Of a stretch of DNA of 64,000 nucleotides, positions 23,536 to 64,000 are shown piece by piece. Position 1 is the first letter of the stretch; every line of letters starts with the position of its first letter. The notes under the pieces are model-generated. The model did not search any database. It had not been told where the DNA came from and saw only the letters and a program-made list of their open reading frames with translations. The DNA comes from Escherichia phage vB_EcoM-101117BS1: sequence record MZ234018.1, one strand, 5' to 3'. The translations under genes and the position numbers were made by a program.

Positions 23536-23545
23536 GGTAAATTAT

Positions 23546-23782
23546 ATGACACAATCAGAGATTCAGTTTACCGAAGCTTTTCTAATATTCGAAAATCTAA
23601 AACAAACATATGGTCTGTCTTCTACCCAACTGGTTTTTGACCTCCCGGAAGATAAACAAATAGAATTCCAAAAAGAATTCCAACGATTAGTTTACCCACG
23701 CCAACGCGCATTTCATGCGATTATCAAAACCACAAATACAGATGGCAAGTCCGTTATATCGCGTCGTACAATAGAAATTTAA
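23546..23782 (+). CDS. hypothetical protein
   Basis: 78 aa from ATG 23546. Confidence 0.45.
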   Translation: MTQSEIQFTEAFLIFENLKQTYGLSSTQLVFDLPEDKQIEFQKEFQRLVYPRQRAFHAIIKTTNTDGKSVISRRTIEI

Positions 23783-26559: not shown

Positions 26560-26572
26560 TAGAATAAATCTA

Positions 26573-26593
26573 GGGACCTCCGGGTCCCTTTTT
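26573..26593 (+). terminator. rho-independent terminator after gene 43
   Basis: gggacctccgggtccc hairpin followed by ttttt. Confidence 0.6.
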
Positions 26594-26705: not shown

Positions 26706-26739
26706 ACAACTATCAACTAATACGGATTTGGAGAATAAA

Positions 26740-26976
26740 ATGAAAATTGTTTATGGTTGCTTAGCAGTGTGTTTAGTTGCATTAGCAACTGTTCCATTTA
26801 TTGATATTGAAAATGATACTCAGAATGTGATTGAATCTAATACTGTTATTCACATGAATGGTAAAGTATCAACAAAAATTGATGATAATCTTCATATGAA
26901 TACTAATGGAACGCTAGGTGTTCAATTAGGTAATACCTGTGTAAGCACTACTGGAGTAATTACTACTTGCATTTGA
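26740..26976 (+). CDS. small secreted protein (signal peptide)
   Basis: 78 aa from ATG 26740; N-terminal hydrophobic signal-like segment. Confidence 0.45.
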   Translation: MKIVYGCLAVCLVALATVPFIDIENDTQNVIESNTVIHMNGKVSTKIDDNLHMNTNGTLGVQLGNTCVSTTGVITTCI

Positions 26977-27779: not shown

Positions 27780-28520
27780 ATGATTAGTGACTCTATGACA
27801 GTTGAAGAAATCCGTCTTCATTTGGGGCTTGCATTAAAAGAAAAAGATTTCGTAGTTGATAAAACTGGTGTTAAAACTATTGAAATTATTGGCGCATCAT
27901 TTGTAGCAGATGAACCGTTTATTTTTGGCGCTCTTAATGATGAATACATTCAGCGTGAACTTGAATGGTATAAATCTAAGAGCTTGTTTGTTAAAGATAT
28001 TCCAGGTGAAACACCGAAGATTTGGCAACAAGTAGCATCTTCTAAAGGTGAAATTAACTCGAATTATGGTTGGGCTATCTGGTCAGAAGATAACTATGCT
28101 CAATATGATATGTGTTTAGCTGAACTTGGTCAAAATCCTGATTCTCGACGTGGTATCATGATTTATACTCGTCCATCCATGCAATTTGACTACAATAAAG
28201 ATGGCATGTCAGATTTCATGTGTACGAATACCGTACAGTATCTGATTCGTGACAAGAAAATCAATGCGGTTGTTAACATGCGCTCAAATGACGTGGTCTT
28301 CGGATTCCGTAATGATTATGCATGGCAAAAATACGTATTAGATAAATTAGTATCTGATTTGAATGCAGGCGATTCAACTCGTCAGTATAAAGCAGGTTCT
28401 ATTATATGGAATGTTGGAAGTCTTCATGTATATTCTCGTCATTTTTACTTGGTTGATCATTGGTGGAATACTGGCGAAACTCATATTGTGAAAAAAGATT
28501 ATAACGGTGAGTGGAAATGA
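27780..28520 (+). CDS. 42: dCMP hydroxymethylase gp42
   Basis: 246 aa; thymidylate-synthase-like; matches T4 gp42. Confidence 0.9.
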   Translation: MISDSMTVEEIRLHLGLALKEKDFVVDKTGVKTIEIIGASFVADEPFIFGALNDEYIQRELEWYKSKSLFVKDIPGETPKIWQQVASSKGEINSNYGWAIWSEDNYAQYDMCLAELGQNPDSRRGIMIYTRPSMQFDYNKDGMSDFMCTNTVQYLIRDKKINAVVNMRSNDVVFGFRNDYAWQKYVLDKLVSDLNAGDSTRQYKAGSIIWNVGSLHVYSRHFYLVDHWWNTGETHIVKKDYNGEWK

Positions 28521-29359
28521 TTCAATTCGTAATTCCAAGTTATCAGCGTGTTGGGGCAGTTTCTGCCCTTGATATGTTTCCGACTGATTATGAACCCCAT
28601 ATTGTAGTGCGTGAACACGAAGAAAAAGCTTATTATGATGCCTATGGGTCTAGAGCTAAAATTGTAACTATTCCTGATGATGTAAATGGAATTGCCGGTA
28701 CTCGTAAAGCAATTACTGATATGTATGCAGGTCAACGAATCTGGATGATTGACGATGATACTACTATTCGTATGAGTTCAATGCGAAAAAGAGATGATCG
28801 TCGTTGTGTAGATAAAGTCAATCAATTGACTCGTGAACAGTTCTATGAATTGATTCAATATGTTGAGGATGCCATGGATTGCGGGTATTATCACGGTCAT
28901 GCTCGTCTACCTATTTTTAAAATTACTTCATCTTGGGGTAATTATCGTGAAAATTCATATGGATTCACGAATACATGGTATGACCTTGGAAAACTTACTA
29001 CAGAACAAATTGGGTATGGAAAAATTGATTTATGCGAAGATATGTATGCATTTCTCAATTTAATTAATCAAGGTTATCCGCATTTGGCCTTGTTCAAATA
29101 TCTAGTTGTATCTGGAAAAGCACAAGCTCCTGGCGGGTGCAGTTCAATTCGTAGTAATTCTAAACATAATAGAGCGCTTGAGCAAATCAATAGAGAGTTT
29201 CCAGAACAAGCTCGTTGGAAAACTTCTAATATTGAAAAACGAAAATCGTTGGGTGAAGAAGACGAGCCATTAAAGGTTCTTCGCATGTGTGTTTCGCGTA
29301 AAGAAAAATCAGAAGCATTTCATAAGTTTAATGCTATTCATCCGATAGCAGTTGATTAA
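28517..29359 (+). CDS. DNA glucosyltransferase (beta-alpha-gt-like, T2/T6 type rather than T4 b-gt)
   Basis: 280 aa in the b-gt position; sequence unlike T4 351-aa beta-gt as recalled. Confidence 0.55.
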   Translation: MIQFVIPSYQRVGAVSALDMFPTDYEPHIVVREHEEKAYYDAYGSRAKIVTIPDDVNGIAGTRKAITDMYAGQRIWMIDDDTTIRMSSMRKRDDRRCVDKVNQLTREQFYELIQYVEDAMDCGYYHGHARLPIFKITSSWGNYRENSYGFTNTWYDLGKLTTEQIGYGKIDLCEDMYAFLNLINQGYPHLALFKYLVVSGKAQAPGGCSSIRSNSKHNRALEQINREFPEQARWKTSNIEKRKSLGEEDEPLKVLRMCVSRKEKSEAFHKFNAIHPIAVD

Positions 29360-29436
29360 TGCCTAAATTTATTGTGTTATAATTACTCTATCTTTAACCA
29401 GTGAGGAAAATATAATGATGCCTATGGAAAAAATGA

Positions 29437-30618
29437 ATGTCTATTGCAGATTTAAAATCCCGTTTGATTAAAGCTTCCACTTCTAAAATGACTGCTGAAC
29501 TGACTACATCTAAATTCTTTAATGAAAAGGATGTAATCCGTACAAAAATCCCAATGCTTAATATTGCTATTTCTGGTGCGATTGATGGCGGCATGCAGTC
29601 TGGTTTAACTATTTTCGCAGGGCCTTCTAAACACTTTAAATCAAATATGTCTTTGACTATGGTTGCGGCATATTTGAACAAATATCCTGACGCGGTTTGT
29701 CTATTCTATGATAGCGAATTTGGTATTACTCCAGCTTATTTGCGATCCATGGGAGTTGACCCGGAACGAGTAATTCATACACCAATCCAGTCAGTTGAAC
29801 AACTGAAAATTGACATGGTGAATCAGCTTGAAGCTATTGAGCGTGGTGAAAAGGTTATTGTATTCATCGACTCAATCGGTAATATGGCTTCTAAGAAAGA
29901 AACGGAAGATGCCTTGAATGAAAAATCTGTGGCAGATATGACTCGTGCTAAATCACTGAAGTCATTATTCCGTATTGTTACTCCTTATTTTAGCATTAAA
30001 AATATTCCATGTGTTGCGGTTAACCATACAATTGAAACAATTGAAATGTTTAGTAAAACCGTGATGACAGGTGGTACAGGCGTAATGTATTCGGCTGATA
30101 CTGTATTCATTATCGGTAAACGCCAGATTAAAGATGGTTCTGATCTTCAGGGGTATCAATTTGTTCTAAATGTAGAAAAATCTCGTACCGTTAAAGAAAA
30201 AAGTAAATTCTTTATTGATGTTAAATTTGACGGTGGTATCGATCCTTATTCTGGATTGTTAGATATGGCTCTAGAATTAGGATTTGTAGTAAAACCTAAA
30301 AATGGCTGGTATGCCCGTGAATTTCTTGATGAAGAAACCGGTGAGATGATTCGCGAAGAAAAATCTTGGCGTGCAAAAGATACCAACTGCACTACATTCT
30401 GGGGTCCTTTATTTAAGCATCAACCATTCCGAGATGCTATTAAACGTGCTTATCAGTTAGGTGCTATTGATAGTAATGAAATTGTTGAAGCTGAAGTTGA
30501 TGAATTGATTAACTCAAAGGTTGAAAAATTTAAATCTCCAGAAAGTAAAAGTAAATCAGCTGCTGATTTAGAAACTGACCTCGAACAGTTAAGTGATATG
30601 GAAGAATTTAATGAATAA
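29437..30618 (+). CDS. uvsX: recombinase UvsX (RecA-like)
   Basis: 393 aa; Walker A GPSKHFKS; near-identical to T4 UvsX as recalled. Confidence 0.95.
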   Translation: MSIADLKSRLIKASTSKMTAELTTSKFFNEKDVIRTKIPMLNIAISGAIDGGMQSGLTIFAGPSKHFKSNMSLTMVAAYLNKYPDAVCLFYDSEFGITPAYLRSMGVDPERVIHTPIQSVEQLKIDMVNQLEAIERGEKVIVFIDSIGNMASKKETEDALNEKSVADMTRAKSLKSLFRIVTPYFSIKNIPCVAVNHTIETIEMFSKTVMTGGTGVMYSADTVFIIGKRQIKDGSDLQGYQFVLNVEKSRTVKEKSKFFIDVKFDGGIDPYSGLLDMALELGFVVKPKNGWYAREFLDEETGEMIREEKSWRAKDTNCTTFWGPLFKHQPFRDAIKRAYQLGAIDSNEIVEAEVDELINSKVEKFKSPESKSKSAADLETDLEQLSDMEEFNE

Positions 30619-30964: not shown

Positions 30965-32392
30965 GTGGTAGAAATTATTCTTTCTCATCTCATATTTGAT
31001 CAAGCTTATTTTTCAAAAGTTTGGCCATATATGGATTCAGAATATTTTGAAAGTGGTCCAGCTAAAAATACATTCAAATTAATTAAATCTCATGTCAATG
31101 AGTATCATAGCGTTCCATCTATTAATGCGTTAAATGTTGCATTAGAAAATAGTTCATTTACTGAAACAGAATATTCTGGTGTAAAAACACTTATTTCAAA
31201 ACTGGCTGATTCTCCGGAAGACCACAGTTGGTTAATAAAAGAAACAGAAAAATATGTTCAGCAAAGGGCGATGTTTAATGCTACGTCTAAAATAATCGAA
31301 ATTCAAACTAATGCTGAGCTTCCTCCGGAAAAACGAAATAAGAAAATGCCGGACGTTGGTGCTATTCCTGACATTATGCGACAAGCATTATCAATTTCAT
31401 TTGATAGTTACGTTGGTCATGATTGGATGGATGACTACGAAGCACGTTGGCTATCTTATATGAATAAAGCTCGTAAGGTTCCATTTAAACTCAGAATTCT
31501 AAACAAAATTACTAAAGGCGGAGCTGAGACTGGAACACTGAACGTTTTAATGGCTGGCGTTAACGTTGGTAAGTCATTAGGATTGTGTTCATTGGCAGCA
31601 GATTATTTGCAGCTCGGACATAATGTTCTTTACATTTCCATGGAAATGGCAGAAGAAGTCTGTGCTAAGCGTATTGATGCTAATATGCTTGATGTTTCTC
31701 TTGATGATATTGATGATGGGCATATTTCTTACGCTGAGTATAAAGGAAAAATGGAAAAATGGCGTGAGAAATCTACCCTTGGTCGTTTAATCGTTAAGCA
31801 ATATCCTACTGGTGGAGCAGACGCTAATACATTTCGATCACTTTTAAATGAATTAAAGCTCAAGAAGAATTTTGTTCCAACAGTCATTATTGTCGACTAT
31901 CTAGGTATTTGTAAATCTTGCCGCATTAGAGTTTATTCAGAAAATAGTTACACAACTGTTAAAGCTATCGCAGAGGAATTGCGTGCTCTGGCTGTTGAAA
32001 CCGAAACTGTTCTTTGGACTGCAGCACAGGTCGGTAAACAAGCTTGGGACTCTTCCGATGTTAACATGAGCGATATTGCAGAATCTGCTGGTCTTCCAGC
32101 AACAGCTGATTTTATGCTTGCGGTCATTGAAACCGAGGAGCTAGCAGCTGCTGAACAACAACTCATTAAGCAAATCAAATCACGATATGGCGATAAGAAT
32201 AAGTGGAATAAGTTTTTAATGGGTGTTCAAAAGGGAAATCAGAAATGGGTAGAAATTGAACAAGATTCTACTCCAACTGAAGTGAGTGAAGTAGCAGGTT
32301 CACAACAGATTCAGGCTGAACAGAATCGCTATCAAAGAAACGAATCAGCTCGAGCTCAGTTAGATGCTTTGGCAAATGAATTAAAATTTTAG
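30965..32392 (+). CDS. 41: replicative DNA helicase gp41
   Basis: 475 aa; GTG start; Walker A GVNVGKS; matches T4 gp41. Confidence 0.95.
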   Translation: MVEIILSHLIFDQAYFSKVWPYMDSEYFESGPAKNTFKLIKSHVNEYHSVPSINALNVALENSSFTETEYSGVKTLISKLADSPEDHSWLIKETEKYVQQRAMFNATSKIIEIQTNAELPPEKRNKKMPDVGAIPDIMRQALSISFDSYVGHDWMDDYEARWLSYMNKARKVPFKLRILNKITKGGAETGTLNVLMAGVNVGKSLGLCSLAADYLQLGHNVLYISMEMAEEVCAKRIDANMLDVSLDDIDDGHISYAEYKGKMEKWREKSTLGRLIVKQYPTGGADANTFRSLLNELKLKKNFVPTVIIVDYLGICKSCRIRVYSENSYTTVKAIAEELRALAVETETVLWTAAQVGKQAWDSSDVNMSDIAESAGLPATADFMLAVIETEELAAAEQQLIKQIKSRYGDKNKWNKFLMGVQKGNQKWVEIEQDSTPTEVSEVAGSQQIQAEQNRYQRNESARAQLDALANELKF

Positions 32393-32421
32393 TTTACAAG
32401 CTGACAAGACTATGGTATAGT
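32392..32421 (+). promoter_or_regulatory. T4-type early promoter
   Basis: GTTTAC 32392-32397, 18-bp spacer, TGGTATAGT. Confidence 0.55.
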
Positions 32422-32450
32422 AGTCTTGTTGGTTAAATGAGGAGATTGTT

Positions 32451-32892: not shown

Positions 32893-32894
32893 CT

Positions 32895-35703: not shown

Positions 35704-36222
35704 ATGGCTTACTTTAATGAATGTGCTCATTTGATCGAAGGTGTTGATAAAGCAAATCGTGCATATGCTGAGAATATTATGCACAATATTGACCCACTGC
35801 AGGTTATGCTTGATATGCAGCGGCATTTACAGATTCGTTTGGCTAATGATAAACCAGAAACAAATCGTCATCCTGATTCACTTGAAACCGCAGGAGAAGT
35901 TCTTGCTTGGTTGCGAAACCAAGACGATTATATCGCAGATGAAACTCGCGAACTATATACTTCTCTTGGTGGTATGAGTAATGGTGAAAAAGAAGCTTCT
36001 GCTGTATGGAAACCTTGGAAGAAACGTTATTCTGAAATGCAATCCAAGAAAATTCAAGATTTATCTCCCGAAGATCAGCTTGAAATTAAATTTGAACTGA
36101 TTGACCAATTTCACTTTTTCATGAATAAATTTATTGCTCTTGGAATGTCAGCTGAAGAAATCTTTAAACTTTATTACCTGAAAAATGCTGAAAACTTCGC
36201 TCGTCAAGACCGAGGTTATTAA
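35704..36222 (+). CDS. 56: dCTP pyrophosphatase gp56 (MazG-like)
   Basis: 172 aa from ATG 35704 (MAYFNECAHLIEGVDKA...). Confidence 0.7.
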   Translation: MAYFNECAHLIEGVDKANRAYAENIMHNIDPLQVMLDMQRHLQIRLANDKPETNRHPDSLETAGEVLAWLRNQDDYIADETRELYTSLGGMSNGEKEASAVWKPWKKRYSEMQSKKIQDLSPEDQLEIKFELIDQFHFFMNKFIALGMSAEEIFKLYYLKNAENFARQDRGY

Positions 36223-36422
36223 TGGCTCGTTTAAATAAGCGTCAGCTTAAGAAAGCCCATAAGAAACGTATTGACCAGCTATTTAAAGATTATAACAAGG
36301 AGCTCGTATGTGAGCTCTTAACTAATCAACTTCGTATGGTTGATTGGGTTATAGAAGAAGGTCCTGACGAAATTTTTGTCAGCGAAGAAGCCTTAAAATT
36401 AATTATAGAGCATTCAAAATGA
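36222..36422 (+). CDS. hypothetical protein
   Basis: 66-aa ORF. Confidence 0.4.
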   Translation: MARLNKRQLKKAHKKRIDQLFKDYNKELVCELLTNQLRMVDWVIEEGPDEIFVSEEALKLIIEHSK

Positions 36423-36628
36423 AATTTGATTTCTACGCGTGGCAAAAAGCCGGGAGACCGGCTACTCGAGCATTTGGTTCTGATGGATATAATATTAGAG
36501 CCCATTGGAAATTTAATGCTCCAGAAGATTATTCTCCGGTAATTATTAACGGTGATGTTGTTATATTAACTAAAATCGGATATTTTAACGTTCCGCGAGA
36601 ATTTATTATAAATAATCATGTAATTTAA
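36419..36628 (+). CDS. hypothetical protein
   Basis: 69-aa ORF. Confidence 0.4.
   Translation: MKFDFYAWQKAGRPATRAFGSDGYNIRAHWKFNAPEDYSPVIINGDVVILTKIGYFNVPREFIINNHVI
36607..36614 (+). promoter_or_regulatory. T4 late promoter (TATAAATA) upstream of soc
   Basis: TATAAATA located 30 nt upstream of the soc ATG. Confidence 0.5.
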
Positions 36629-36902: not shown

Positions 36903-36908
36903 AATTTA

Positions 36909-36940
36909 AGGAATCCTTCGGGGTTCCTTTTTTCGTTTTT
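36909..36940 (+). terminator. rho-independent terminator after soc
   Basis: aggaatcc-ttcg-gggttcct hairpin followed by tttttcgttttt. Confidence 0.6.
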
Positions 36941-40381: not shown

Positions 40382-40411
40382 GTTTACAAGTTAAGGTAAA
40401 AATGTTATAGT
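40382..40411 (+). promoter_or_regulatory. T4-type early promoter
   Basis: GTTTAC 40382-40387, 18-bp spacer, TATAGT. Confidence 0.5.
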
Positions 40412-40450
40412 ATAAGTAGTAGTTAACCGTCCGTAAGATGTGAGAAAAAT

Positions 40451-45895: not shown

Positions 45896-45991
45896 AGTTT
45901 AAAATTTTTCATAAAACTATATACATCAGTAGTTGATTATGGTACTATATCAATATCAACTACTGATACAGAAAATAACTTGGAGAATAAA

Positions 45992-46261
45992 ATGGAAAAC
46001 TTAATTATCATCGAGCAATCTTTCAATGATTATGGTATGGCTTATGGTTATCGTGCGATAATGGAAGATTCTCGTGGATGTGTTATCGATATTGCTGAAT
46101 GTAAAGATTTACTGCAGCTTTTGAAGATTGTTCGTAAAAATTGGGATTGTGAAAACATTAAAGCTCGTGTTGTAACGGAAGAAGAAACTGTTTTTCATGA
46201 TGTAAAATTCGCTAAAGGTGCTGCTACTCTTCTGAAACGTATCGCTCCACTGTTTAATTAA
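45992..46261 (+). CDS. hypothetical protein
   Basis: 89 aa from ATG 45992; upstream leader resembles those at 26740 and 53966. Confidence 0.45.
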   Translation: MENLIIIEQSFNDYGMAYGYRAIMEDSRGCVIDIAECKDLLQLLKIVRKNWDCENIKARVVTEEETVFHDVKFAKGAATLLKRIAPLFN

Positions 46262-47777: not shown

Positions 47778-47804
47778 ATTCCCGAAACCAAACGAGGATA
47801 AGTG

Positions 47805-49622
47805 ATGATTAAGAATGAAATTAAAATTCTGAGCGATATTGAACATATCAAAAAGCGTAGCGGCATGTACATTGGCTCTTCAGCTAATGAAATGCATGAG
47901 CGCTTTCTGTTTGGTAAATGGGAAAGTGTTCAGTATGTACCTGGTCTTGTTAAGCTTATTGATGAAATTATCGATAACTCAGTAGATGAAGGTATTCGTA
48001 CTAAGTTTAAATTCGCAAATAAAATTAATGTTACTATTAAAAACAATCAAGTAACAGTTGAAGATAACGGTCGTGGTATTCCGCAGGCAATGGTTAAAAC
48101 ACCTACCGGTGAAGAAATTCCTGGTCCTGTTGCTGCATGGACTATTCCAAAAGCAGGTGGTAACTTTGGTGATGATAAAGAACGCGTCACTGGCGGTATG
48201 AATGGTGTTGGTTCTAGTTTGACAAACATTTTTTCTGTGATGTTTGTCGGTGAAACTGGTGATGGTCAAAATAATATTGTAGTTCGTTGTTCAAATGGCA
48301 TGGAAAATAAATCATGGGAAACTATTCCTGGAAAATGGAAAGGAACTCGTGTTACTTTCATTCCTGATTTTATGTCATTTGAAACTAATGAGCTGTCCCA
48401 AGTTTATCTTGACATTACATTAGATCGTCTCCAGACACTTGCTGTTGTTTATCCTGATATTCAATTTACCTTTAATGGTAAAAAGGTTCAGGGCAATTTT
48501 AAGAAATATGCACGCCAATATGATGAGCATGCTATTGTTCAAGAACAAGAAAATTGTTCTATTGCGGTTGGTCGTTCACCGGATGGTTTTCGTCAATTAA
48601 CATACGTCAATAACATTCATACTAAGAATGGTGGCCATCACATTGACTGTGTTATGGATGATATTTGTGAAGACCTTATTCCACAAATCAAACGTAAGTT
48701 CAAAATTGATGTGACTAAAGCACGCGTTAAAGAATGTTTGACTATCGTTATGTTTGTCCGTGATATGAAAAACATGCGATTTGATTCTCAAACTAAAGAG
48801 CGTTTGACTTCTCCATTTGGCGAAATTCGTAGTCATATTCAGCTTGATGCTAAAAAGATTTCACGCGCTATTCTAAATAATGAAGCAATTCTAATGCCGA
48901 TTATCGAAGCTGCTTTGGCTCGTAAATTGGCAGCAGAAAAAGCAGCTGAAACTAAAGCAGCTAAAAAGGCCTCTAAGGCAAAGGTTCATAAACATATTAA
49001 AGCGAATCTTTGCGGTAAAGATGCTGACACTACTCTTTTCTTGACTGAGGGTGATTCTGCTATCGGATATCTTATTGATGTTCGTGATAAAGAACTTCAC
49101 GGTGGTTATCCATTGCGTGGTAAAGTTCTTAATAGCTGGGGTATGTCATATGCCGATATGCTTAAAAACAAAGAACTATTTGATATTTGCGCAATCACTG
49201 GTCTAGTTCTTGGTGAAAAAGCTGAAAACTTGAATTATCATAATATTGCTATTATGACTGATGCTGACCATGATGGTCTAGGAAGCATTTATCCTTCTCT
49301 GCTCGGGTTTTTTAGTAATTGGCCAGAATTGTTTGAACAAGGACGAATTCGCTTTGTCAAAACTCCTGTAATCATCGCTCAGGTCGGTAAAAAACAAGAA
49401 TGGTTTTATACAGTCGCTGAATATGAGAGTGCCAAAGATGCTCTACCTAAACATAGCATCCGTTATATTAAGGGACTTGGCTCTTTGGAAAAATCTGAAT
49501 ATCGTGAGATGATTCAAAACCCAGTATATGATGTTGTTAAACTTCCTGAGAACTGGAAAGAGCTTTTTGAAATGCTCATGGGAGATAATGCTGACCTTCG
49601 CAAAGAATGGATGAGTCAGTAG
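47805..49622 (+). CDS. 39: DNA topoisomerase II large subunit (gyrase B-like), fused 39+60 form
   Basis: 605 aa from ATG 47805; ATPase and TOPRIM regions in one continuous ORF. Confidence 0.9.
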   Translation: MIKNEIKILSDIEHIKKRSGMYIGSSANEMHERFLFGKWESVQYVPGLVKLIDEIIDNSVDEGIRTKFKFANKINVTIKNNQVTVEDNGRGIPQAMVKTPTGEEIPGPVAAWTIPKAGGNFGDDKERVTGGMNGVGSSLTNIFSVMFVGETGDGQNNIVVRCSNGMENKSWETIPGKWKGTRVTFIPDFMSFETNELSQVYLDITLDRLQTLAVVYPDIQFTFNGKKVQGNFKKYARQYDEHAIVQEQENCSIAVGRSPDGFRQLTYVNNIHTKNGGHHIDCVMDDICEDLIPQIKRKFKIDVTKARVKECLTIVMFVRDMKNMRFDSQTKERLTSPFGEIRSHIQLDAKKISRAILNNEAILMPIIEAALARKLAAEKAAETKAAKKASKAKVHKHIKANLCGKDADTTLFLTEGDSAIGYLIDVRDKELHGGYPLRGKVLNSWGMSYADMLKNKELFDICAITGLVLGEKAENLNYHNIAIMTDADHDGLGSIYPSLLGFFSNWPELFEQGRIRFVKTPVIIAQVGKKQEWFYTVAEYESAKDALPKHSIRYIKGLGSLEKSEYREMIQNPVYDVVKLPENWKELFEMLMGDNADLRKEWMSQ

Positions 49623-53965: not shown

Positions 53966-54229
53966 ATGAAATTTAAATTTTATTACGCTAAACATAAAAT
54001 AACTGATGAGTTTGTGTCAGTTGAATATTCTAGCGATGATGAAGGCATGATTTATACTCGCTTAGGATTATCGCATTGGGAGTCTGATCAGCCTTATTTT
54101 TCAACTCCCGAAGAAATTACACGCTTAATTAATGGTCATATGAATGACCACTGGAATGTAATTCTTTCAGATAGTCTTAAAGCGGCTATTAATAGTAATG
54201 AAATGAAAATCGCTGAGATTGAGCTATGA
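53966..54229 (+). CDS. hypothetical protein
   Basis: 87 aa from ATG 53966. Confidence 0.45.
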   Translation: MKFKFYYAKHKITDEFVSVEYSSDDEGMIYTRLGLSHWESDQPYFSTPEEITRLINGHMNDHWNVILSDSLKAAINSNEMKIAEIEL

Positions 54230-56216: not shown

Positions 56217-56349
56217 GAAAATCTTGGGCTATTCATTAGCCCTTGCTACTTTATTAGTAGCACTATATTATGGAGTAATGTTCGGATTAATTCAAGTCGT
56301 GCTTTTCATTTCTGATGTTATTATGGCACTACATTCACTAGTATGGTAA
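56209..56349 (+). CDS. small membrane protein
   Basis: 46-aa hydrophobic ORF. Confidence 0.3.
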   Translation: MIKKILGYSLALATLLVALYYGVMFGLIQVVLFISDVIMALHSLVW

Positions 56350-56353
56350 ATTT

Positions 56354-57682
56354 ATGCAACTGAATAATCGCGATTTAAAAAGTATCATTGATAATGAAGC
56401 ATTGGCTTATGCTATGTACACGGTTGAAAATCGTGCTATTCCAAATATGATTGATGGATTTAAGCCAGTTCAACGATTTGTTATTGCTCGAGCTCTTGAT
56501 TTGGCACGAGGAAATAAAGATAAGTTTCACAAACTCGCTTCTATTGCAGGTGGTGTAGCGGACCTTGGATATCATCATGGTGAAAACTCTGCGCAAGACG
56601 CAGGTGCTTTGATGGCTAACACTTGGAATAATAACTTTCCTCTGTTAGATGGTCAAGGAAACTTCGGTTCTCGTACTGTCCAAAAGGCAGCAGCAAGTCG
56701 TTATATTTTTGCTCGTGTAAGTAAAAATTTCTATAACGTATATAAAGATACTGAATATGCTCCGGTACATCAAGATAAAGAACACATTCCGCCTGCTTTC
56801 TATTTGCCTATTATTCCTACTGTTCTTCTTAATGGCGTTTCCGGTATTGCAACTGGTTATGCAACTTACATTCTTCCTCATAGTGTTTCTTCTGTTAAGA
56901 AAGCTGTACTGCAAGCTCTTCAAGGAAAGAAAGTAACTAAACCGAAGGTAGAATTCCCAGAATTTCGTGGTGAAGTCGTTGAAATTGATGGGCAATATGA
57001 AATTCGTGGAACATATAAGTTTACTTCACGAACTCAAATGCATATCACTGAGATTCCGTATAAGTATGATCGTGAAACTTACGTGAGTAAAATCTTAGAC
57101 CCACTTGAAGATAAAGGCTTCATTACATGGGATGATGCTTGCGGTGAGCACGGTTTTGGATTCAAAGTTAAATTCCGCAAAGAATATTCTTTGAGCGATA
57201 ATGAAGAAGAACGCCATGCAAAAATTATGAAAGACTTCGGGTTGATTGAGCGTCGTTCTCAGAATATTACGGTTATTAATGAGAAAGGAAAACTGCAAGT
57301 TTACGATAACGTAGTTGATTTAATCAAAGACTTCGTCGAAGTTCGTAAAACTTATGTCCAAAAACGAATTGATAACAAAATTAAAGAAACTGAGTCAGCT
57401 TTTCGTTTAGCCTTTGCCAAGGCACATTTCATTAAGAAAGTAATTTCAGGTGAAATTGTTGTACAGGGTAAAACTCGTAAAGAACTGACCGAAGAACTTT
57501 CGAAAATCGATATGTATTCTTCTTATGTTGATAAACTAGTTGGAATGAATATTTTTCATATGACTTCCGACGAAGCAAAGAAACTTGCTGAAGAAGCTAA
57601 AGCTAAAAAAGAAGAAAACGAATATTGGAAAACTACTGATGTAGTTACTGAATACACCAAAGATTTAGAGGAAATCAAATGA
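56354..57682 (+). CDS. 52: DNA topoisomerase II medium subunit gp52 (gyrase A-like)
   Basis: 442 aa; matches T4 gp52. Confidence 0.9.
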   Translation: MQLNNRDLKSIIDNEALAYAMYTVENRAIPNMIDGFKPVQRFVIARALDLARGNKDKFHKLASIAGGVADLGYHHGENSAQDAGALMANTWNNNFPLLDGQGNFGSRTVQKAAASRYIFARVSKNFYNVYKDTEYAPVHQDKEHIPPAFYLPIIPTVLLNGVSGIATGYATYILPHSVSSVKKAVLQALQGKKVTKPKVEFPEFRGEVVEIDGQYEIRGTYKFTSRTQMHITEIPYKYDRETYVSKILDPLEDKGFITWDDACGEHGFGFKVKFRKEYSLSDNEEERHAKIMKDFGLIERRSQNITVINEKGKLQVYDNVVDLIKDFVEVRKTYVQKRIDNKIKETESAFRLAFAKAHFIKKVISGEIVVQGKTRKELTEELSKIDMYSSYVDKLVGMNIFHMTSDEAKKLAEEAKAKKEENEYWKTTDVVTEYTKDLEEIK

Positions 57683-57828
57683 GTCCATTCATTGGTATTA
57701 CAAGCGCTGCATTAGTATCTGGTAGCATTTTACTGGCGGGTTTAGGCGTTGTTCCAGCAGTAGCAGGAGGTCTTCTTGCGTTCGGCATTCAACGTGTTAT
57801 CATGACAGTTATCACAGTCATGCAGTAA
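57679..57828 (+). CDS. small membrane protein
   Basis: 49-aa Gly/Ala-rich hydrophobic ORF overlapping gene 52 stop. Confidence 0.35.
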   Translation: MSPFIGITSAALVSGSILLAGLGVVPAVAGGLLAFGIQRVIMTVITVMQ

Positions 57829-57833
57829 TTTTA

Positions 57834-57862
57834 GGGAGAGCCGAGGCTCTCCCTTTTTTATT
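57834..57862 (+). terminator. rho-independent terminator
   Basis: gggagagccgaggctctccc hairpin followed by ttttttatttt. Confidence 0.6.
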
Positions 57863-57884
57863 TTAAAATTTTTTTCACAAAACG

Positions 57885-57914
57885 GTTTACAACCAAAGCA
57901 TACTGTGGTACTAT
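57885..57914 (+). promoter_or_regulatory. T4-type early promoter of motA
   Basis: GTTTAC 57885-57890, 18-bp spacer, TGGTACTAT. Confidence 0.6.
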
Positions 57915-57955
57915 ACAACTATCAACTACTGATACAGAATTACGGAGATTAGAAA

Positions 57956-58591
57956 ATGTCTAAAGTAACTTACATCATCAAAGCTTCTAACGATGTTCTG
58001 AATGAAAAAACTGCTGCGATTTTAATTACCATTGCTAAGAAAGATTTCATTACAGCTGCGGAAGTTCGTGAGGTGCATCCAGATTTAGGTAACGCAGTAG
58101 TTAATAGTAATATTGGGGTGTTGATTAAAAAAGGCCTGGTGGAGAAATCTGGTGATGGATTAATCATTACTGGTGAAGCTCAGGATATTATTTCAAATGC
58201 AGCAACTTTATACGCGCAAGAAAATGCTCCGGAACTACTGAAAAAACGAGCAACTCGTAAAGCTCGTGAGATTACTTCTGATATGGAAGAAGATAAAGAC
58301 CTCATGTTAAAACTTTTAGATGAAAATGGATTTGTTCTTAAAAAGGTCGAAACTTATCGCAGTAACTATCTCGCTATTTTAGAAAAACGCACTCACGGAA
58401 TTCGTAATTTTGAAATTAACAACAATGGAAATATGCGAATTTTTGGATACAAAATGATGGAACATCATATTCAGAAATTTACTGACATCGGAATGTCATG
58501 TAAAATCGCTAAAAACGGTAATGTGTATCTTGACATTAAACGCTCGGCAGAAAACATTGAAGCTGTAATCACTGTAGCATCTGAACTGTGA
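57956..58591 (+). CDS. motA: middle-transcription activator MotA
   Basis: 211 aa; matches T4 MotA. Confidence 0.9.
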   Translation: MSKVTYIIKASNDVLNEKTAAILITIAKKDFITAAEVREVHPDLGNAVVNSNIGVLIKKGLVEKSGDGLIITGEAQDIISNAATLYAQENAPELLKKRATRKAREITSDMEEDKDLMLKLLDENGFVLKKVETYRSNYLAILEKRTHGIRNFEINNNGNMRIFGYKMMEHHIQKFTDIGMSCKIAKNGNVYLDIKRSAENIEAVITVASEL

Positions 58592-58601
58592 GGAATAAAT
58601 A

Positions 58602-58931
58602 ATGAACAAGTTAGAAATTGTTAATGAACTTCGTCGTTGCGCAGAACCCACTCAAGAGGGGTGGGACATCTGGTATCATGGAGCTTATCTTGGAACTATC
58701 GTAAAGATTAAGACTGGTAAATACATGATTATTCGTGAAAGTAAAGATGCTCCAGTAGGTATTCGCAATAATTTTATGGCAGCGATAAGTTCATTTACTG
58801 ATGCAGCTTACGAAATTTACCTTGCCGATTATAAAGAATATCAGCAGTCACAACCGGTTATTCGTTCAATTGGTGTTAACAAAGCTCAGCAGAAAACTTT
58901 GTGGCAACGTATTAAAGGATGGTTTAAATGA
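58602..58931 (+). CDS. hypothetical protein
   Basis: 109-aa ORF. Confidence 0.45.
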
Positions 58932-59389
58932 AAACTTTTAAAGAACGTTTAGCTCTGTTAAATAAAGCTTTGTCGCGTGAGACTCCGGAAAGTCTGGCTG
59001 CTAAATTAGCTTCTTACGGTGGTGAATATACAGAACAAAATGTTTTAGATGAAGTTCCTGAAATCTGTTGGCAGACTGCATATTGGGATGAAAAACAAAA
59101 GTATCAACGACGAATTGTCTGTGCAGCCAACCGTTTTAAATTAAAAGATGGACGAACTCTTATTATTCCAGGTGCTCGTCATTATTCTAAAGATATGGCC
59201 GAAGTTTTAGATGTAGTTAAACCTCAATTAGTTACTCAACAAGTTTGTGATGATGACCAAGGGTTTATTGACCAATATAGTAATTATTGGACACGTGAAG
59301 AAGCAATGATTATTGCAACTTACGCTGGACAAGTACGTATTGAACGCGGTGGTAGTGAAAAAGAACTTTACTCTGAGGACCTTTACTAA
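58928..59389 (+). CDS. hypothetical protein
   Basis: 153-aa ORF. Confidence 0.5.
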
Positions 59390-59685
59390 TGAATATTAAA
59401 AAGTTTCAAATTGATGGAATTATGAATCAAATCCAGGCATTAGAATATGCCAATAAAATGATGTCAACTAATTGGGGAATTTATGCCAATGAACCGGCGT
59501 TTCAGTTCTGTAATATGGAATTCGCCAAAAAGCTCGTAGGAAAAGATTATGTGTGTCCATTTAGTTCTCCAGTAAATGGAATGCTAAAACCTGCTTTACG
59601 CGATCTTTATATTGCGATGAACGAAGAAATGATAAAAGAGTTAAAACGTCAACTGAAGGTGATTCAATTTGGCCAGGGAAATTAA
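59389..59685 (+). CDS. hypothetical protein
   Basis: 98-aa ORF. Confidence 0.45.
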   Translation: MNIKKFQIDGIMNQIQALEYANKMMSTNWGIYANEPAFQFCNMEFAKKLVGKDYVCPFSSPVNGMLKPALRDLYIAMNEEMIKELKRQLKVIQFGQGN

Positions 59686-61357: not shown

Positions 61358-61365
61358 TATTTATA
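61358..61365 (-). promoter_or_regulatory. T4 late promoter (TATAAATA) for gene t
   Basis: - strand reads TATAAATA, then AGGAGG SD, then the t ATG. Confidence 0.55.
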
Positions 61366-61912
61366 CGTAATGCTTGAATAAACGCTTATACCAAGGTTTC
61401 CGTTCTTTTTCAGGCCATGAAGGGAATTCACCACCTAAATGCTCATGCTTTTCTAAAAGAGCAAAGAACCGCTTAAGGTTTTTATAATAAAATTTTTCCT
61501 TTTTATTGGCGACAGAAGCTTCAATCATATTATTTAAAACTTGGAACTCTTTATATAATTCTTCAATTTTTCTATTACGAATTAAAACTCGCTTATATGT
61601 TTCGTCTTCTTTCCAACCGTCATCAGTCCATATATCAAATTCGCCAGGCTCATCAAAAGTTATACCAACCGGGCTTCCAATTTCACTTATAAAAATTTCT
61701 TCTTTATTAAAAGTCCATGCTCGTTTTCCGCGATGGTCTTCTTCATAAATCCAATCCTGAGTACGTTCATCAAATACAACTGCATATCCTTCTTTAGGTT
61801 CTAAAGGTTTTTTAATTGTTGAATGAGCAGGAAGACCGAGGCCTTTAACCGGTTTGTAATTTTCTTCTTTGTAAAATTCTTTAGTGTCAAAATAATAATG
61901 ATATATTTTCAT
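61361..61912 (-). CDS. 38: gp38, T4-type tail-fibre assembly chaperone
   Basis: 183 aa MKIYHYYFDTKEFYKEENYKP...; matches T4 gp38. Confidence 0.85.
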   Translation of the reverse strand: MKIYHYYFDTKEFYKEENYKPVKGLGLPAHSTIKKPLEPKEGYAVVFDERTQDWIYEEDHRGKRAWTFNKEEIFISEIGSPVGITFDEPGEFDIWTDDGWKEDETYKRVLIRNRKIEELYKEFQVLNNMIEASVANKKEKFYYKNLKRFFALLEKHEHLGGEFPSWPEKERKPWYKRLFKHYV

Positions 61913-61920
61913 ATTTAGAA

Positions 61921-61934
61921 GGGGCCGAAGCCCC
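61921..61934 (-). other. UUCG-loop hairpin between genes 37 and 38
   Basis: - strand reads ggggcttcggcccc. Confidence 0.4.
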
Positions 61935-61939
61935 TCTCC

Positions 61940-64000
61940 TTATGCTAAACGAACGATATAGTTAAAAGCAATGTTTTTAACCGTGTTTTCTGTATTACCT
62001 GTACTATTTACAGTGATAGTATGACCATGCGAGCCAATTGCTACCTTGTGGGTATGAGCACCGATACCTACAGTATGGGTATGAGCACCAATACCTACTG
62101 TGTGAGCATGGTTACCTGTAGTGCTTGTAGTACCAGACCAAGTATGAGTATGAGCACCGTCTGAAGAAGTTTTGGCTATATTCGACCCTGCAGTAGCACC
62201 GTTCACGGTTCCAGTGAATTTAGCGTTGGCGTTTGCACCTACACTATTATATCCGTCATAGAATATGTTATTGGGTATGCCGGCTTGTATCTGAGGACCT
62301 GAGCGCGCATGTTGGTGTGCACCAGCAGAACTCGTAGTACCGCTTACAGTATGAGAGTGGTTACCTGTGGTATTGCTAGTCTTAGTGCCATAGTCAAAGC
62401 TACTTGTCGTCTTAGTACCATAATCAAAACTCGACGTAGTTTTAGTACCCAAGTCAGTACTTGAAGCCGATGCACTATGGCTATGAGCCTTAACACCATC
62501 GGCTTCTGCGCTTAATACAGCTCGACCACTTGGTTTACCTTTAATAGTTTGCCCGCGCATATCTGGAATTACGCCAGATGGGTAAGCCATAGCCAATTTT
62601 GGGTATGCAGACTTATCAAAAGTCTGGCCTTCCATAATAGCGTAACCGTCAGGAGGAGTATCCGTTGGCCATGGAATAGGAGCACCGATTGGGTAACTCG
62701 ATACAATATCGGTTTTAAGTGATTCAATTGTACTGTTTAAATTAGCAAAATTGCCAGAACCACCTGTAATATTGCCGTCTGTACCTAAATAAACTGAACC
62801 ACCAGCAGAAACACGCTTAGGAGATATAAAATCACCATTTTTGTTAAATTCCCAACCTAAATCCTTTATAATAGCGCCAGTCGAACCGCCATCGCCGCCT
62901 TTATGATAATGAACTCTGAAGTTACCGCCGTTAATTAGAGTTCCCAGAGAATAACAACTGTTTCCTTGGACATATCGTTGTTTCAAAATAGGAACGTAAG
63001 TACTTTTATCTGTACGATTAATATTCATATAGAATGGAGCACGAACGTTTTCATTATTTTGTGAAGCAAAAGACCCTGCACCAGCCGGGCGAACTGTGTC
63101 AGTACATTCAGCATCAATATAAGCTGCTTGTCCTACCTGCATACGGTAATTAGGAGAAATGCGACTATTACTAGTAACAACAACAAGTTTGGTATCGTTG
63201 TCCACAGTAATCATATTACCGCCAGCGCCATCATCGCCTAACGTAACAGAATGGCGCATTTGTACCATACCATTATTAAGACTAATACTAAGTGGGCGGA
63301 GATTACTTATTCCACCACTTTCACCGGCATCTTTAGGAGTCGGGATAATATGTAATGCTGTTTCTGAGCGACGGAAAATAGCACCGTATTCGGCATTCCA
63401 AATTCTTAATGCATCAGCAGTTCCACCAATTTTTACTTGTCCAGTAATAGAAGAACCACCTTGGACAAACAAACCATTAGACATGGTAACATTACCGACT
63501 AAAGTGCTTAATCCATTAACTTTAAAACTTCCGTCAGTAATAATACTTCCTCTAGCATTAACTTGTCCATTGAACTGGGTTACAACAGGCCCAGTAGTTT
63601 CAGAGCCACTTGGAGCCACACGCTGTGAATAAAAATAATATCCTTGTCCATCAGCTACTTCAAAAACCGTTTCACGATTACGATCGCCAGATGCGTTAAA
63701 TGAATTACCCCATGCTTTAACAGTTACATAGCTTTTATTCTGACCAGCACGAGTACCGCCTTCCCACAAAATTTGCTTAGTGCCATCAATTGTAGTAGTT
63801 GGAGCGAATGTTAGCCCAGCAGTAGAATTATTAGCTGCTAAATATATGCCATTATATATTGAAAGCTGCTTAACAGATGTAATACCGCCATCAGCATAAA
63901 ACATTACATTATTAGAGCCAGTTACCAATTTCAAAATACCCGGGTTAACTTCCATGCCTTCTTGAGTATTAATATTAGTTTTGCCTTTACCACGGAAATA
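61940..64000 (-). CDS. 37: long tail fibre distal subunit gp37 (5'-partial; continues beyond window end)
   Basis: reading frame stays open to the window edge; C-terminal His-rich [33 protein letters not shown] repeats as in T4 gp37. Confidence 0.9.
62018..62158 (-). repeat. tandem codon repeats encoding the HxH-rich segment of the gp37 tip
   Basis: near-identical ~24-nt units (gggtatgagcaccgatacctacag...) on the + strand. Confidence 0.6.
62378..62449 (-). repeat. tandem ~30-nt repeats encoding [10 protein letters not shown] units in gp37
   Basis: protein reads [24 protein letters not shown]. Confidence 0.5.

Follow-up and report, generated by a model that had tools for sequence, protein, structure and literature searches.

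The stretch at positions 57833-57955, between gene 52 and motA, is best read as regulatory punctuation between two early transcription units, with cassettes of its kind doubling as portable homologies; the probability of this reading is put at about 0.85. It belongs to the window, i.e., the whole stretch of 64,000 nucleotides of Escherichia phage vB_EcoM-101117BS1 (MZ234018.1) that was analysed, which represents the early-gene part of a T4-like coliphage, a Tequatrovirus. The flagged site is the classical motA early promoter together with its preceding terminator, real but ordinary. T4 early promoters, RegB sites and promoter-early-stem-loops (PeSLs) have already been described, the PeSL part in publications of 2010 and 2014, and no new question is opened. 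For annotation, the boundary between transcription units is fixed at the gene 52/motA junction, and the early promoters indicate small ORFs that are expected right after infection. For the study of evolution, a concrete PeSL example is provided by an ORF of 75 aa that is 99% identical between two genera and lies at motA in 142 phages.

Identity of the locus and structure of the motA site

Phage Lutter and others match the 52-motA stretch at 98% identity, and at least 80% of it is covered in 476 records. Upstream of T4 motA, terminator, promoter and leader are identical and in the same position, the sole difference from hairpin to ATG being a shifted A/T boundary in the upstream A/T-rich tract; the cassettes at the denB/ndd, ndd.4 and asiA positions are likewise identical in T4. 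A terminator is annotated at the focal site in Lutter and NR1, in Lutter together with the promoter. The features of the region are as follows:

56354-57682: gene 52, upstream transcription unit
57679-57828, + strand: motA.1-like small ORF of 49 aa (from the ORF list; T4 motA.1/gene 52 at the orthologous place; phrog_3487 match)
57833-57865, + strand: predicted intrinsic terminator, stem AGGGAGAGC/GCTCTCCCT with CGAG loop (57833-57854) and T-run TTTTTATTTTA
57866-57884, + strand: A/T-rich UP-element-like region, AAATTTTTTTCACAAAACG
57885-57914, + strand: core early promoter with -35 GTTTAC, 15-nt spacer and extended -10 TGGTACTAT, identical before T4 motA
57915-57955, + strand: discriminator ACAACT and 5'UTR of about 35 nt, with the shared block and an SD/RegB-type site GGAGATTAGAA at 57944-57954
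57956-58591, + strand: motA, activator of middle transcription, 211 aa (Pfam MotA_activ, E = 5e-61, and MotCF, E = 3e-67; phrog_1345; T4 annotation)

The upstream transcription unit ends with the motA.1-like ORF. The hairpin behind it (57833-57854) has a folding energy of -17.6 kcal/mol (z = -4.1); its stem is invariant in relatives, the loop being CGAG, CTCG or CTTG, and 31 nt lie between the stem end (57854) and the -35 element. This putative rho-independent terminator, with a GC-rich stem of 9 bp and a T-run, would end the transcripts of gene 52 and motA.1, and about 50 nt downstream a very strong promoter for host sigma-70 would fire right after infection. Transcription probably starts near A57921, as judged from standard sigma-70 geometry, and would yield a 5'UTR roughly 35 nt long, which is predicted to be unstructured (z = -0.7 for the leader) and in which the SD GGAGATTAGAA may double as a target cleaved by the RegB/S1 endoribonuclease in this phage. 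Given an early promoter and a RegB-type SD, motA would thus be made at once and then shut off.

The elements found at the site are those of an early promoter. A -35 element and an extended -10 TGnTAnnnT with 17-nt spacing are present, and A/T-rich, UP-like sequence precedes the -35; the promoter is orthologous to the mapped one before T4 motA, lies on the strand that is transcribed early and has an early gene downstream. T4 early promoters consist of UP, -35, TGn and -10 elements with additional regions of consensus (PMC2988021), UP elements being documented for them (PMC2988021; PMC1524935), and statements on the full T4 early consensus are based here on Hinton (2010) and Nolan (2006). Initiation at T4 motA takes place straight after infection without phage protein synthesis (references in PMC3014915). 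GTTTAC, TGGTAyTAT, the A/T-rich UP region, the extra start-site consensus and the early strand are common to the T4 motA promoter and the one studied here; they differ in that three paralogous promoters of this phage retain small ORFs lost in T4, and otherwise in nothing substantial.

The early promoter family

The window contains about 15 paralogous early-promoter cassettes, the focal site among them, all on the + strand. Thirteen are numbered C1 to C13 and two are named after the downstream gene:

C1, 1377-1434, + strand: promoter, ACAACTATCAACTAC, then GGAGGAACAGAAA; before a 175-aa ORF at 1435-1962
C2, 4333-4390, + strand: early promoter, TGGTATAAT, without shared leader
C3, 12281-12435, + strand: hairpin 12281-12295 (UCU loop), promoter 12376; before a 60-aa ORF at 12436 (T4 55.6-like)
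C4, 26572-26739, + strand: gene 43 terminator hairpin 26572-26589 (UCCG loop), promoter 26676, shared leader, 3' end GGAGAATAAAA at 26730-26740; before a 78-aa ORF at 26740-26976
dmd, 32392-32450, + strand: early promoter, its -10 overlapped by a 15-bp stem-loop at 32399-32434
C5, 36908-36999, + strand: soc terminator hairpin (UUCG loop), promoter 36944 TGGTATAAT; before mrh.2 (T4 and NR1 annotation)
C6, 39046-39101, + strand: early promoter (modB)
srd, 40382-40450, + strand: upstream early promoter
C7, 44250-44306, + strand: early promoter (motB.2)
C8, 45919-45991, + strand: -35 variant ATATAC, leader ATCAATATCAACTAC...GGAGAATAAAA; before an 89-aa ORF at 45992-46261
C9, 49622-49676, + strand: early promoter (rIIA.1), spacer equal to that of C2 at 13 of 15 positions
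C10, 53899-53965, + strand: promoter, shared leader, GGAGAATAAAA; before an 87-aa ORF at 53966-54229, downstream of denB
C11, 54415-54472, + strand: spacer of the C1/C4 type, degenerate leader TACTCTATCAACTAC, SD of C1; before a 37-aa ORF (ndd.4-like)
C12, 57833-57955, + strand: the focal motA cassette
C13, 60350-60410, + strand: early promoter (asiA)

Every cassette ends in an SD of the GGAG, GAGG or GGAT type 5-9 nt before the ATG except the srd promoter, where the strict SD check assigned no start. An orthologous cassette of C3 is present in T4. The ORFs behind C4, C8, C10 and C11 belong to PHROGs of unknown function only, and Pfam gave no match for the small flanked ORFs.

A recurring promoter and leader pattern had been noted by the first-pass annotation, and it is real and far above chance: GTTTAC-N15-TGGTAYTAT occurs seven times against 0 expected from shuffles, and the looser TTTAC..TGnTAnnAT 12 times against 0.57, in both cases on the + strand throughout. 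The GTTTAC elements at 12376, 26676, 36944 and 57885 with the hairpins cited beside them, and the ATGs at 1435, 26740, 45992, 53966, 54473 and 57956, were all found where that annotation had placed them. Its 18-bp spacer did not hold, as GTTTAC-N17-19-TGGTAYTAT has 0 matches, TGG following after 15 nt and the conventional hexamers being 17 nt apart, nor did TGGTA(C/T)TAT at 36944, where the sequence reads TGGTATAAT. A generic sigma-70 scan is uninformative in so AT-rich a window (52 sites versus 53.5 in shuffles).

Behind the -10 element, ACAACTATCAACTAC is exact at 1407, 53929 and 57915 and carries one mismatch at 26706; with up to 3 mismatches allowed, 10 matches were counted versus 2.35 expected. 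This block or a degenerate form of it follows the -10 in six promoters, and the cassette pairs with at least 10 of 15 bases in common after the -10 number 18, where 0.46 would be expected. C1, C4, C10 and C12, degenerately also C8 and C11, form a subfamily that shares ACAACTATCAACTAC as discriminator and initial transcribed block. A common leader of 20-25 nt had been proposed; the block is indeed shared but strictly only over 15 nt, extending to 21-22 nt between C10 and C12, and what was called a leader is partly promoter discriminator and start site, its 3' end being the known RegB/S1 consensus. Further upstream, the alignment showed the motif TTTTTCACAAAAC in the UP-like region to be common to C3, C4, C8, C10 and C12.

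A scan of IMG/VR with the 24-mer TGGTACTATACAACTATCAACTAC gave no basis for a survey, with 12 stretches on 5 contigs, and relatives were surveyed in the GenBank phage collection. The motA cassette as query gave 1265 hits, spread over 514 records at about 2.5 per genome. At gathering thresholds no Rfam family was detected anywhere in the window; hairpins and leaders stand outside the curated RNA families.

Hairpins and their relation to the promoters

The four hairpins cited by the first-pass annotation, at 12281-12295, 26572-26589, 36908-36929 and 57833-57854, reach -13.8, -13.9, -12.1 and -17.6 kcal/mol with z-scores of -2.9 to -4.1, and they are not homologous to one another. They had been described as UUCG-loop hairpins, which applies to one of the four (36908); the other loops are UCCG (26572), CGAG (57833) and UCU (12281). 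Between genes of the window there are 11 GC-stem hairpins with a UUCG loop on the + strand, 10 of which are without a following early promoter.

The supposed pairing of hairpin and promoter is not above chance in intergenic gaps (Fisher p = 0.7): three gaps hold both (four with C3), eight a promoter only, 11 a hairpin only and 18 neither. Only 4 to 5 of the approximately 15 early promoters have an upstream hairpin, and 4 to 7 a stem-loop of either kind; upstream hairpins at C3, C4, C5 and C12 together with overlapping ones at C8 and dmd make about 6 of 15. An inverted repeat of 20 nt encloses the core promoter of C8 (45925-45967; -20.2 kcal/mol, z = -6.0), and the dmd stem-loop reaches -18.9 kcal/mol (z = -4.3). 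At 39012, before the modB promoter, a weak hairpin was rejected as a further composite site, as it does not exceed shuffles (z = -1.0). Hairpin and promoter do not act as an obligate unit.

Putative RegB/S1 sites in the leaders

In T4 the RegB/S1 consensus GGAGAAUAAAA is usually found within the SD of early genes, the RegB consensus being given as GGAGRAYARAA, and the good substrates of RegB include motA RNA (PMC3014915; PMC1702504), for which S1-stimulated cleavage between G and A was reported (PMC1702504). The predicted sites of this phage take the same place at the 3' end of the leader: GGAGAATAAAA at C4, C8 and C10 agrees with the T4 consensus at 11 of 11 positions, and GGAGATTAGAA at motA (57944-57954) at 10 of 11. 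C1 and C11 differ from the T4 targets in carrying GGAGGAACAGA, a poorer match. The RegB-type sites are single-stranded, the leaders being unstructured, and double as SD. The regB gene itself lies outside the window.

Mosaicism of spacers and leaders

Spacers of non-orthologous cassettes are identical at 12-14 of 15 positions (C1/C4/C11; C2/C9), and pairs alike at 9 or more of 15 positions number six versus 0.6 expected. Spacer type and 3'-leader type occur in all four combinations, and at the C10 locus two alternative 3' leaders are found before the same gene, BCH953P2 and HY03 having a different 3' half. Spacer and SD modules are shared among these cassettes as a mosaic. Much of the similarity is attributed to selection on RNA polymerase contacts, start site, RegB/S1 site and SD.

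Gene gain and loss at the cassettes

Presence and absence in relatives, proposed by the first-pass annotation as a check, separates variable ORFs at C4, C8 and C10 from conserved genes at motA and C1. Of about 500 Tequatrovirus records, 320 contain the ORF body behind C4, 259 that behind C8 and 268 that behind C10, the last figure counting fully present bodies. T4 is without all three, and its breakpoints lie a few nt from the cassette ATG at junction repeats of about 5 bp (C8), 8 bp (C4) and 12 bp (C10). At C4 the same cassette directly precedes imm.1 in T4, with the 8-bp repeat ATGAAAAT as junction; at C8 only a remnant of 11 codons was kept; and at C10 an in-frame deletion of 225 bp at the 12-bp repeat left 8 codons. 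The events at C8 and C10 in T4 are ORF-internal deletions, not cassette-to-cassette exchanges. SH1 has an extra ORF of 68 aa (MFTTAELK...) at C10, between the leader and the resident 87-aa ORF. Directions of the single indel events are given as we infer them.

At the focal locus an ORF of 75 aa is located between the motA.1 terminator and motA in 142 records, with the crossover within the leader at the shared CTATCAA; in PsgM02F and ZN18 the left junction reads ACAACTATCAA|ATAAATGAACTGAAAC and lies inside the conserved leader. In the Dhakavirus JS10 the same ORF lies between two cassettes of about 56 nt in direct repeat; it shares 98.9% identity with the copy in Tequatrovirus, while flanking DNA is 74-80% identical. 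Cassettes of the JS10 type occur at different loci (SH-1 7748, ZN18 31926), and an insert of 603 bp in SH-1 holds two promoter-ORF units.

As a class, the early-promoter cassettes are not enriched at indels (4 of 13, versus 25 of 97 other gene starts), and only about 4 of some 25 indel loci touch a cassette. Adjacency was seen at C4, C8, C10 and C12, but neither at C1 nor, in six genome comparisons, at the other promoters; for the shared-leader subfamily this amounts to 4 of 5 (hypergeometric p ~0.017, a post hoc value from six genomes). The proposal that the cassettes mark recombination boundaries is partly supported, for the shared-leader subfamily (C4, C8, C10 and the motA insertion) but not for the class. 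Mobility of the flanked genes fits the ORFs at C4, C8 and C10 but not motA, which is conserved and syntenic, nor the C1 region, which is kept in 496 records. Many indels away from cassettes also break just after an ATG, and the substrate may be microhomology at translation starts at large and not the cassette as such. In the favoured reading the cassettes also serve as short portable homologies, and homologous or microhomology recombination in the leader and translation-start region may add, delete or swap small early ORFs, as in the published PeSL model.

Alternative explanations

The cassettes could be purely regulatory, owing their likeness to convergence or to vertical descent from ancient duplications and having no special role in gene gain and loss. 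A plausible role can indeed be named for each conserved block (UP, -35, TGn/-10, discriminator/+1, RegB/S1 with SD), and orthologous cassettes are syntenic in T4, NR1, BCH953P2, SH-1, ZN18 and HY03, so that similarity within a locus is mostly vertical; the lacking enrichment of the class, the conservation of motA and the C1 gene and the ATG breakpoints of non-cassette indels point the same way. Regulation by itself leaves the spacers unaccounted for, however, as they are not read base by base by RNA polymerase and yet agree so closely between non-orthologous cassettes, and it does not lead one to expect the four-combination mosaic, the two different 3' leaders before one gene, the placing of the 142-record crossover precisely within the shared CTATCAA or the JS10-type cassettes at differing loci. 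We therefore regard it as unlikely. Chance resemblance in AT-rich DNA, for which only the unselective generic sigma-70 scan would speak, is hardly credible and already refuted by the enrichment of the specific motifs on one strand, the 15-mer that recurs exactly three times, the orthology of the cassettes and their presence at corresponding positions of hundreds of genomes.

Site-specific recombination or a mobile element, with the leader as an attachment-like core and cassette-ORF units moving as circles, would suit the JS10 ORF between direct repeats, and the Tequatrovirus copy of the 75-aa ORF resembles a unit that was permuted circularly and then integrated within the leader. Arbiol et al. 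left 'homologous or site-specific' open and detected mini-circles in RB49/phi1 (PMC2839356; PMC4122927). Against such a system, the junctions vary, falling on CTATCAA of the leader, on the start-codon repeat ATGAAAAT, on a 12-bp AATAAAATGAAA-like repeat or inside ORFs, which fits recombination at short homologies rather than a fixed core, and no recombinase family was found among nine scanned cassette-flanked proteins, a subset of the window ORFs. General recombination of T4 is moreover very active, and a site-specific system seems very improbable.

The post -10 core CTATCAA is extended to an imperfect palindrome TATCAACTACTGATA in C8, C10 and C12, and CTATCA is kept across cassette families and genera, with one junction within it. 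Beyond discriminator, start site and passive homology, the block might conceivably be a recognition element for the rapid shut-off of T4 early promoters or a preferred crossover hotspot by which promoter-ORF units pass between genera; judged from sequence, such a role is improbable. The idea of a hotspot was prompted by the transfer of the 75-aa ORF from Dhakavirus to Tequatrovirus, with its junction exactly in CTATCAA.

Comparison with known systems

The site was identified as a PeSL correctly: T4-type sigma-70 early promoters, some of them behind terminators, are the PeSLs of Comeau et al. (2014). The definition goes back to Arbiol et al. (2010; PMC2839356) and Comeau et al. (2014; PMC4122927) and in T4/PST comprises TTTACW-N17-TAYWAT, a stem-loop just upstream or overlapping, an AT-rich region and SD with ATG (PMC4122927); the same paper gives the denB-ndd locus, here C10/C11, as an example of a PeSL-associated swap. 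Assays of mini-circles and of terminator and promoter activity by PCR or reporter are contained in PMC2839356. The focal site has a stable stem-loop upstream of the promoter and an SD and start codon at its 3' end. Common to PeSLs and the present cassettes are the composite layout of AT-rich region, sigma-70-like early promoter, stem-loop and SD with ATG, the vicinity of ORFs that differ between close relatives and, in JS10, tandem cassettes around a single ORF. Differences concern the stem-loop, which is restricted here to the 4 to 7 promoters mentioned and whose link to the promoter lacks statistical support, and several junctions, which are situated in translation-start microhomology or within the ORF and not between two complete cassettes; also, motA is a conserved regulator and not an ORFan, whereas the ORFs at C4, C8, C10 and C11 fit.

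Two further systems invite comparison. Hairpins with a C(UUCG)G tetraloop in intercistronic regions of T4 were reportedly described by Tuerk et al. in 1988; the 11 UUCG hairpins between genes of the window resemble them, but only that at 36908 precedes an early promoter, and the focal loop is CGAG. The 'morons' of lambdoid phages are said by Hendrix and colleagues to consist of promoter, gene and terminator inserted between conserved genes. Small accessory ORFs that bring along a promoter and in some cases a terminator, such as those of the 603-bp SH-1 insert and the 75-aa ORF at motA, are similar to morons, but here promoter and leader are a repeated family common to resident genes, which would supply the homology for integration.

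Results

Early promoters with a shared leader

The intergenic region upstream of motA, whose product was identified by the Pfam domains MotA_activ and MotCF (E = 5e-61 and 3e-67), is composed of a terminator, an early promoter and a leader (cassette C12 among our early-promoter cassettes C1 to C13).

Features upstream of motA (+ strand)
57679-57828: motA.1-like ORF
57833-57854: terminator hairpin, perfect 9-bp stem AGGGAGAGC/GCTCTCCCT with CGAG loop, then TTTTTATTTTA
57866-57884: A/T-rich tract
57885: -35 element GTTTAC
57906-57914: -10 region TGGTACTAT
from 57915: discriminator ACAACT, then presumed start at A57921; leader of about 35 nt
up to 57955: leader 3' end GGAGATTAGAAA, then the motA ATG at 57956

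The hairpin has a folding energy of -17.6 kcal/mol (z = -4.1), and the leader shows no significant structure (z = -0.7). T4 carries the same sequence upstream of motA, the sole difference being a shifted A/T boundary in the A/T-rich tract; terminator and promoter are annotated at exactly these positions in the record of phage Lutter, and the terminator in that of NR1. The terminator loop (57843-57846) reads CGAG in the window, T4, NR1, HY03 and others, its reverse complement CTCG in SH-1 (L018 30995) and ZN18 (L019 31575), and CTTG in one IMG/VR contig (L006 76), while the stem is invariant throughout, a pattern suggestive of the loop having been inverted at a palindrome.

The promoter belongs to a family. 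GTTTAC-N15-TGGTAYTAT occurs seven times in the window (0 expected) and a looser pattern 12 times (0.57 expected), always on the + strand; a slightly wider search added the dmd and srd promoters and an ATATAC variant at 45919, so that about 15 early promoters were compared by alignment. Directly after the -10 element, three sites (1407, 53929 and 57915) carry ACAACTATCAACTAC unchanged and a fourth (26706) with a single mismatch, and at least 10 of 15 bases following the -10 are common to 18 cassette pairs (0.46 expected). The first-pass annotation had reported this recurrence of promoter and shared leader, and all its coordinates proved correct. Its further proposal, that UUCG-loop hairpins are coupled to the promoters, was not borne out: the four hairpins cited are mutually unrelated in sequence, only the one at 36908 has a UUCG loop (the others UCCG, CGAG and UCU), and at 36944 the site reads TGGTATAAT instead of TGGTA(C/T)TAT. 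Once both signals were confined to intergenic gaps, their association was not above chance (both in 3-4 gaps, promoter only in 8, hairpin only in 11, neither in 18; Fisher p = 0.7). The recurring unit is promoter plus leader, not hairpin plus promoter.

Ten more GC-stem hairpins with UUCG tetraloops occupy intergenic positions. No early promoter follows any of them, several have no T-run, and they are probably mRNA-stabilising or processing elements like the classical C(UUCG)G hairpins of T4.

Further UUCG hairpins (+ strand)
13243, 15610, 16880, 21589, 23787, 30656, 47735, 53016, 53244, 55864

A search of the entire window against Rfam matched no family.

Function and probable exchange as sources of similarity

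Standard sigma-70 geometry would make the first six bases of the shared block, ACAACT, the discriminator and the next A the start site, and the block would therefore be partly promoter rather than transcript; this is consistent with the consensus of T4 early promoters, which extends beyond UP, -35, TGn and -10 (PMC2988021). The leaders end in Shine-Dalgarno sequences, which read GGAGAATAAAA in the cassettes at 26572 (C4), 45919 (C8) and 53899 (C10), exactly the T4 consensus for efficient cleavage by the endoribonuclease RegB with S1 according to Durand et al. (PMC1702504). At motA, 10 of the 11 positions fit GGAGRAYARAA, and RegB is known to act well on motA RNA (PMC3014915, PMC1702504). The elements are T4 early promoters, the focal one that of motA, some with upstream terminators and with leaders ending in RegB-type sites. 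Since the parts of the leader would be promoter, Shine-Dalgarno sequence and RegB site, established function explains much of the similarity among cassettes; such a cassette would provide strong immediate transcription, efficient translation and then rapid inactivation by RegB.

The spacers between -35 and -10 are not read base by base, and they are identical at 12-14 of 15 positions among the non-orthologous C1 (1377), C4 and C11 (54415), and at 13 of 15 between C2 (4333) and C9 (49622). When UP, spacer, 5'-leader and 3'-leader types were classified in the window, T4, NR1, BCH953P2, SH-1, ZN18 and HY03, all four combinations of spacer type with 3'-leader type were present, and at the locus downstream of denB the leader of one and the same 87-aa gene continues as ...TGATACGGATTTGGAGAATAAA in the window and NR1 and as ...GCTACGGAGGAGTAAAA in BCH953P2 and HY03. 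Such a pattern requires recombination or conversion inside the shared ACAACTATCAACTAC block.

Two promoters not flagged in the first-pass annotation carry long stem-loops overlapping the -10. The C8 core promoter is situated inside a 20-nt inverted repeat, ATCAGTAGTTGATTATGGTA / TATCAATATCAACTACTGAT (45925-45967; -20.2 kcal/mol, z = -6.0), and its spacer corresponds to the shared leader motif in reverse complement; T4 has an identical sequence, and the hairpin could form solely in read-through transcripts or single-stranded DNA. In the dmd early promoter, the -10 is within the loop of a 15-bp stem-loop (32399-32434; -18.9 kcal/mol, z = -4.3). Both match another PeSL (promoter-early stem-loop) subclass, the one described for RB49/phi1 (PMC2839356).

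An inserted ORF upstream of motA

In 142 records, an ORF of 75 aa is situated between the motA.1 terminator and motA, which makes the focal cassette a polymorphic insertion site.

Loci with the 75-aa ORF (phrog_10955, function unknown)
JS10 (L021): 1100-1555
PsgM02F (L022): 470-960
ZN18 (L019): 31570-31995

In the Dhakavirus JS10 the ORF lies between two cassettes, each about 56 nt long, that form a direct repeat (GTTTACwTCTGCTTTAAACATGATACTAT AGACCTATCAAATAAATGAACTGAAAC), and this tandem unit is preceded by a different terminator with a UUCG loop. The JS10 and Tequatrovirus copies are 98.9% identical, against 74-80% for the flanking gene 52 and arn.4 DNA, which suggests that the ORF moved recently between genera. 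Identity of about 99% to JS10 extends over 140 Tequatrovirus-like records, one phage reported on Pseudomonas among these. PsgM02F keeps an intact resident motA promoter, and its left junction, ACAACTATCAA|ATAAATGAACTGAAAC, places the crossover inside CTATCAA, which is common to both leader families; on the right-hand side of the insertion the foreign promoter is kept 5' of motA. In ZN18 the T-run, UP element and -35 are gone as well. A cassette-ORF circle that integrated through homology in the leader would produce the arrangement seen at motA, and such integration was proposed for PeSLs (PMC2839356, PMC4122927).

With the motA cassette as query, 514 records gave matches at 1265 places, a mean of about 2.5 per genome. 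In 124 records the best match was just 80-90% identical, as would fit replacement of the motA cassette.

Such composites were catalogued as PeSLs in T4 and PST, with the same promoter consensus, by Comeau et al. (2014; PMC4122927), who gave the denB-ndd locus as their example of PeSL-associated exchange. The first-pass annotation had named them correctly in essence, if imprecisely in some details; the finding is real and overall already known. New is the detail of a well-resolved insertion at motA, mediated by the leader and common to more than one genus.

Gene gain and loss next to cassettes

The 5' breakpoints of three indels relative to T4 fall within a few nucleotides of the ATG following C4, C8 and C10. 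T4 has no 78-aa ORF at C4, its cassette being joined to imm.1 via an 8-bp repeat, ATGAAAAT; it retains an 11-codon remnant at C8, and an 8-codon remnant at C10, where 225 bp were deleted in frame at a 12-bp repeat. The ORF bodies behind C4, C8 and C10 were found in 320, 259 and 268 records of the GenBank phage collection, relative to roughly 500 Tequatroviruses (the C1 region is retained in 496 records, with 95-99% identity; 476 of the 921 phage records matched by the 52-motA stretch, 56300-59400, cover at least 80% of it). In SH-1 a further ORF of 68 aa separates the C10 leader from the resident 87-aa ORF.

Genes flanked by cassettes had been regarded as the likely mobile content. This holds for the ORFs behind C4, C8 and C10 and for the intergenic slot at motA; motA and the C1 gene are conserved and syntenic, and for the focal gene itself the expectation therefore fails. 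Taken together, the cassettes show no enrichment for breakpoints (3 of 13 by automatic count, or 4 of 13 including C4, whose alignment extended to ATG+18, versus 25 of 97 other gene starts). The one exception is the shared-leader subfamily, with 4 of 5 next to breakpoints (hypergeometric p ~0.017, a post hoc value from small numbers). Of 25 indel loci in six genome comparisons, only about 4 reach a cassette; the remainder are due to homing endonucleases, introns, swaps of glucosyltransferase or adhesin and promoterless small ORFs. Many ORF-sized promoterless indels break just 3' of an ATG (13852, 42836, 47099, 55901 and others), with flanking alignments overlapping by up to about 20 bp. A/T-rich microhomology at translation starts may be the general substrate, of which cassettes are perhaps just the longest.

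A 603-bp insertion in SH-1 (L018 7380-8010; near window position 32894) comprises two complete early promoter-ORF units of 84 and 60 aa; in the second, promoter and leader are members of the JS10/ZN18 motA cassette family.

Relation to T4

Many Tequatrovirus genomes, e.g. those of phage Lutter and the slur phages, share 97-98% identity with the 52-motA stretch. By blastn the window is colinear with T4 from the nrdC region through 43, 41, dda, rIIA, rIIB, denB, ndd, 52, motA and asiA to t, 38 and 37, with the + strand as early-transcription strand and about 20 indels. Absent relative to T4 are the nrdD intron with I-TevII, mobC, mobB, segA, segF, dam and the mobA/gene 60 insertion.

Sites of losses and differences relative to T4
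9591, 10867, 15664, 28502-29442, 35644, 36222-36607, 49222-49274

In contrast to T4, the topoisomerase large subunit is a single unsplit ORF of 606 aa (47802-49622), and a glucosyltransferase-like ORF of 282 aa (28511-29359) differs from that of T4. A 95-aa ORF between regA and gene 43 (23495-23782), missing from T4 via a 230-bp indel, directly precedes the UUCG hairpin 5' of gene 43. Distal gene 37 and the adhesin region next to it (61364-63955, - strand) diverge sharply, with only 77-80% identity to T4, and are replaced in NR1, SH-1 and HY03, the usual swap of a host-range module.
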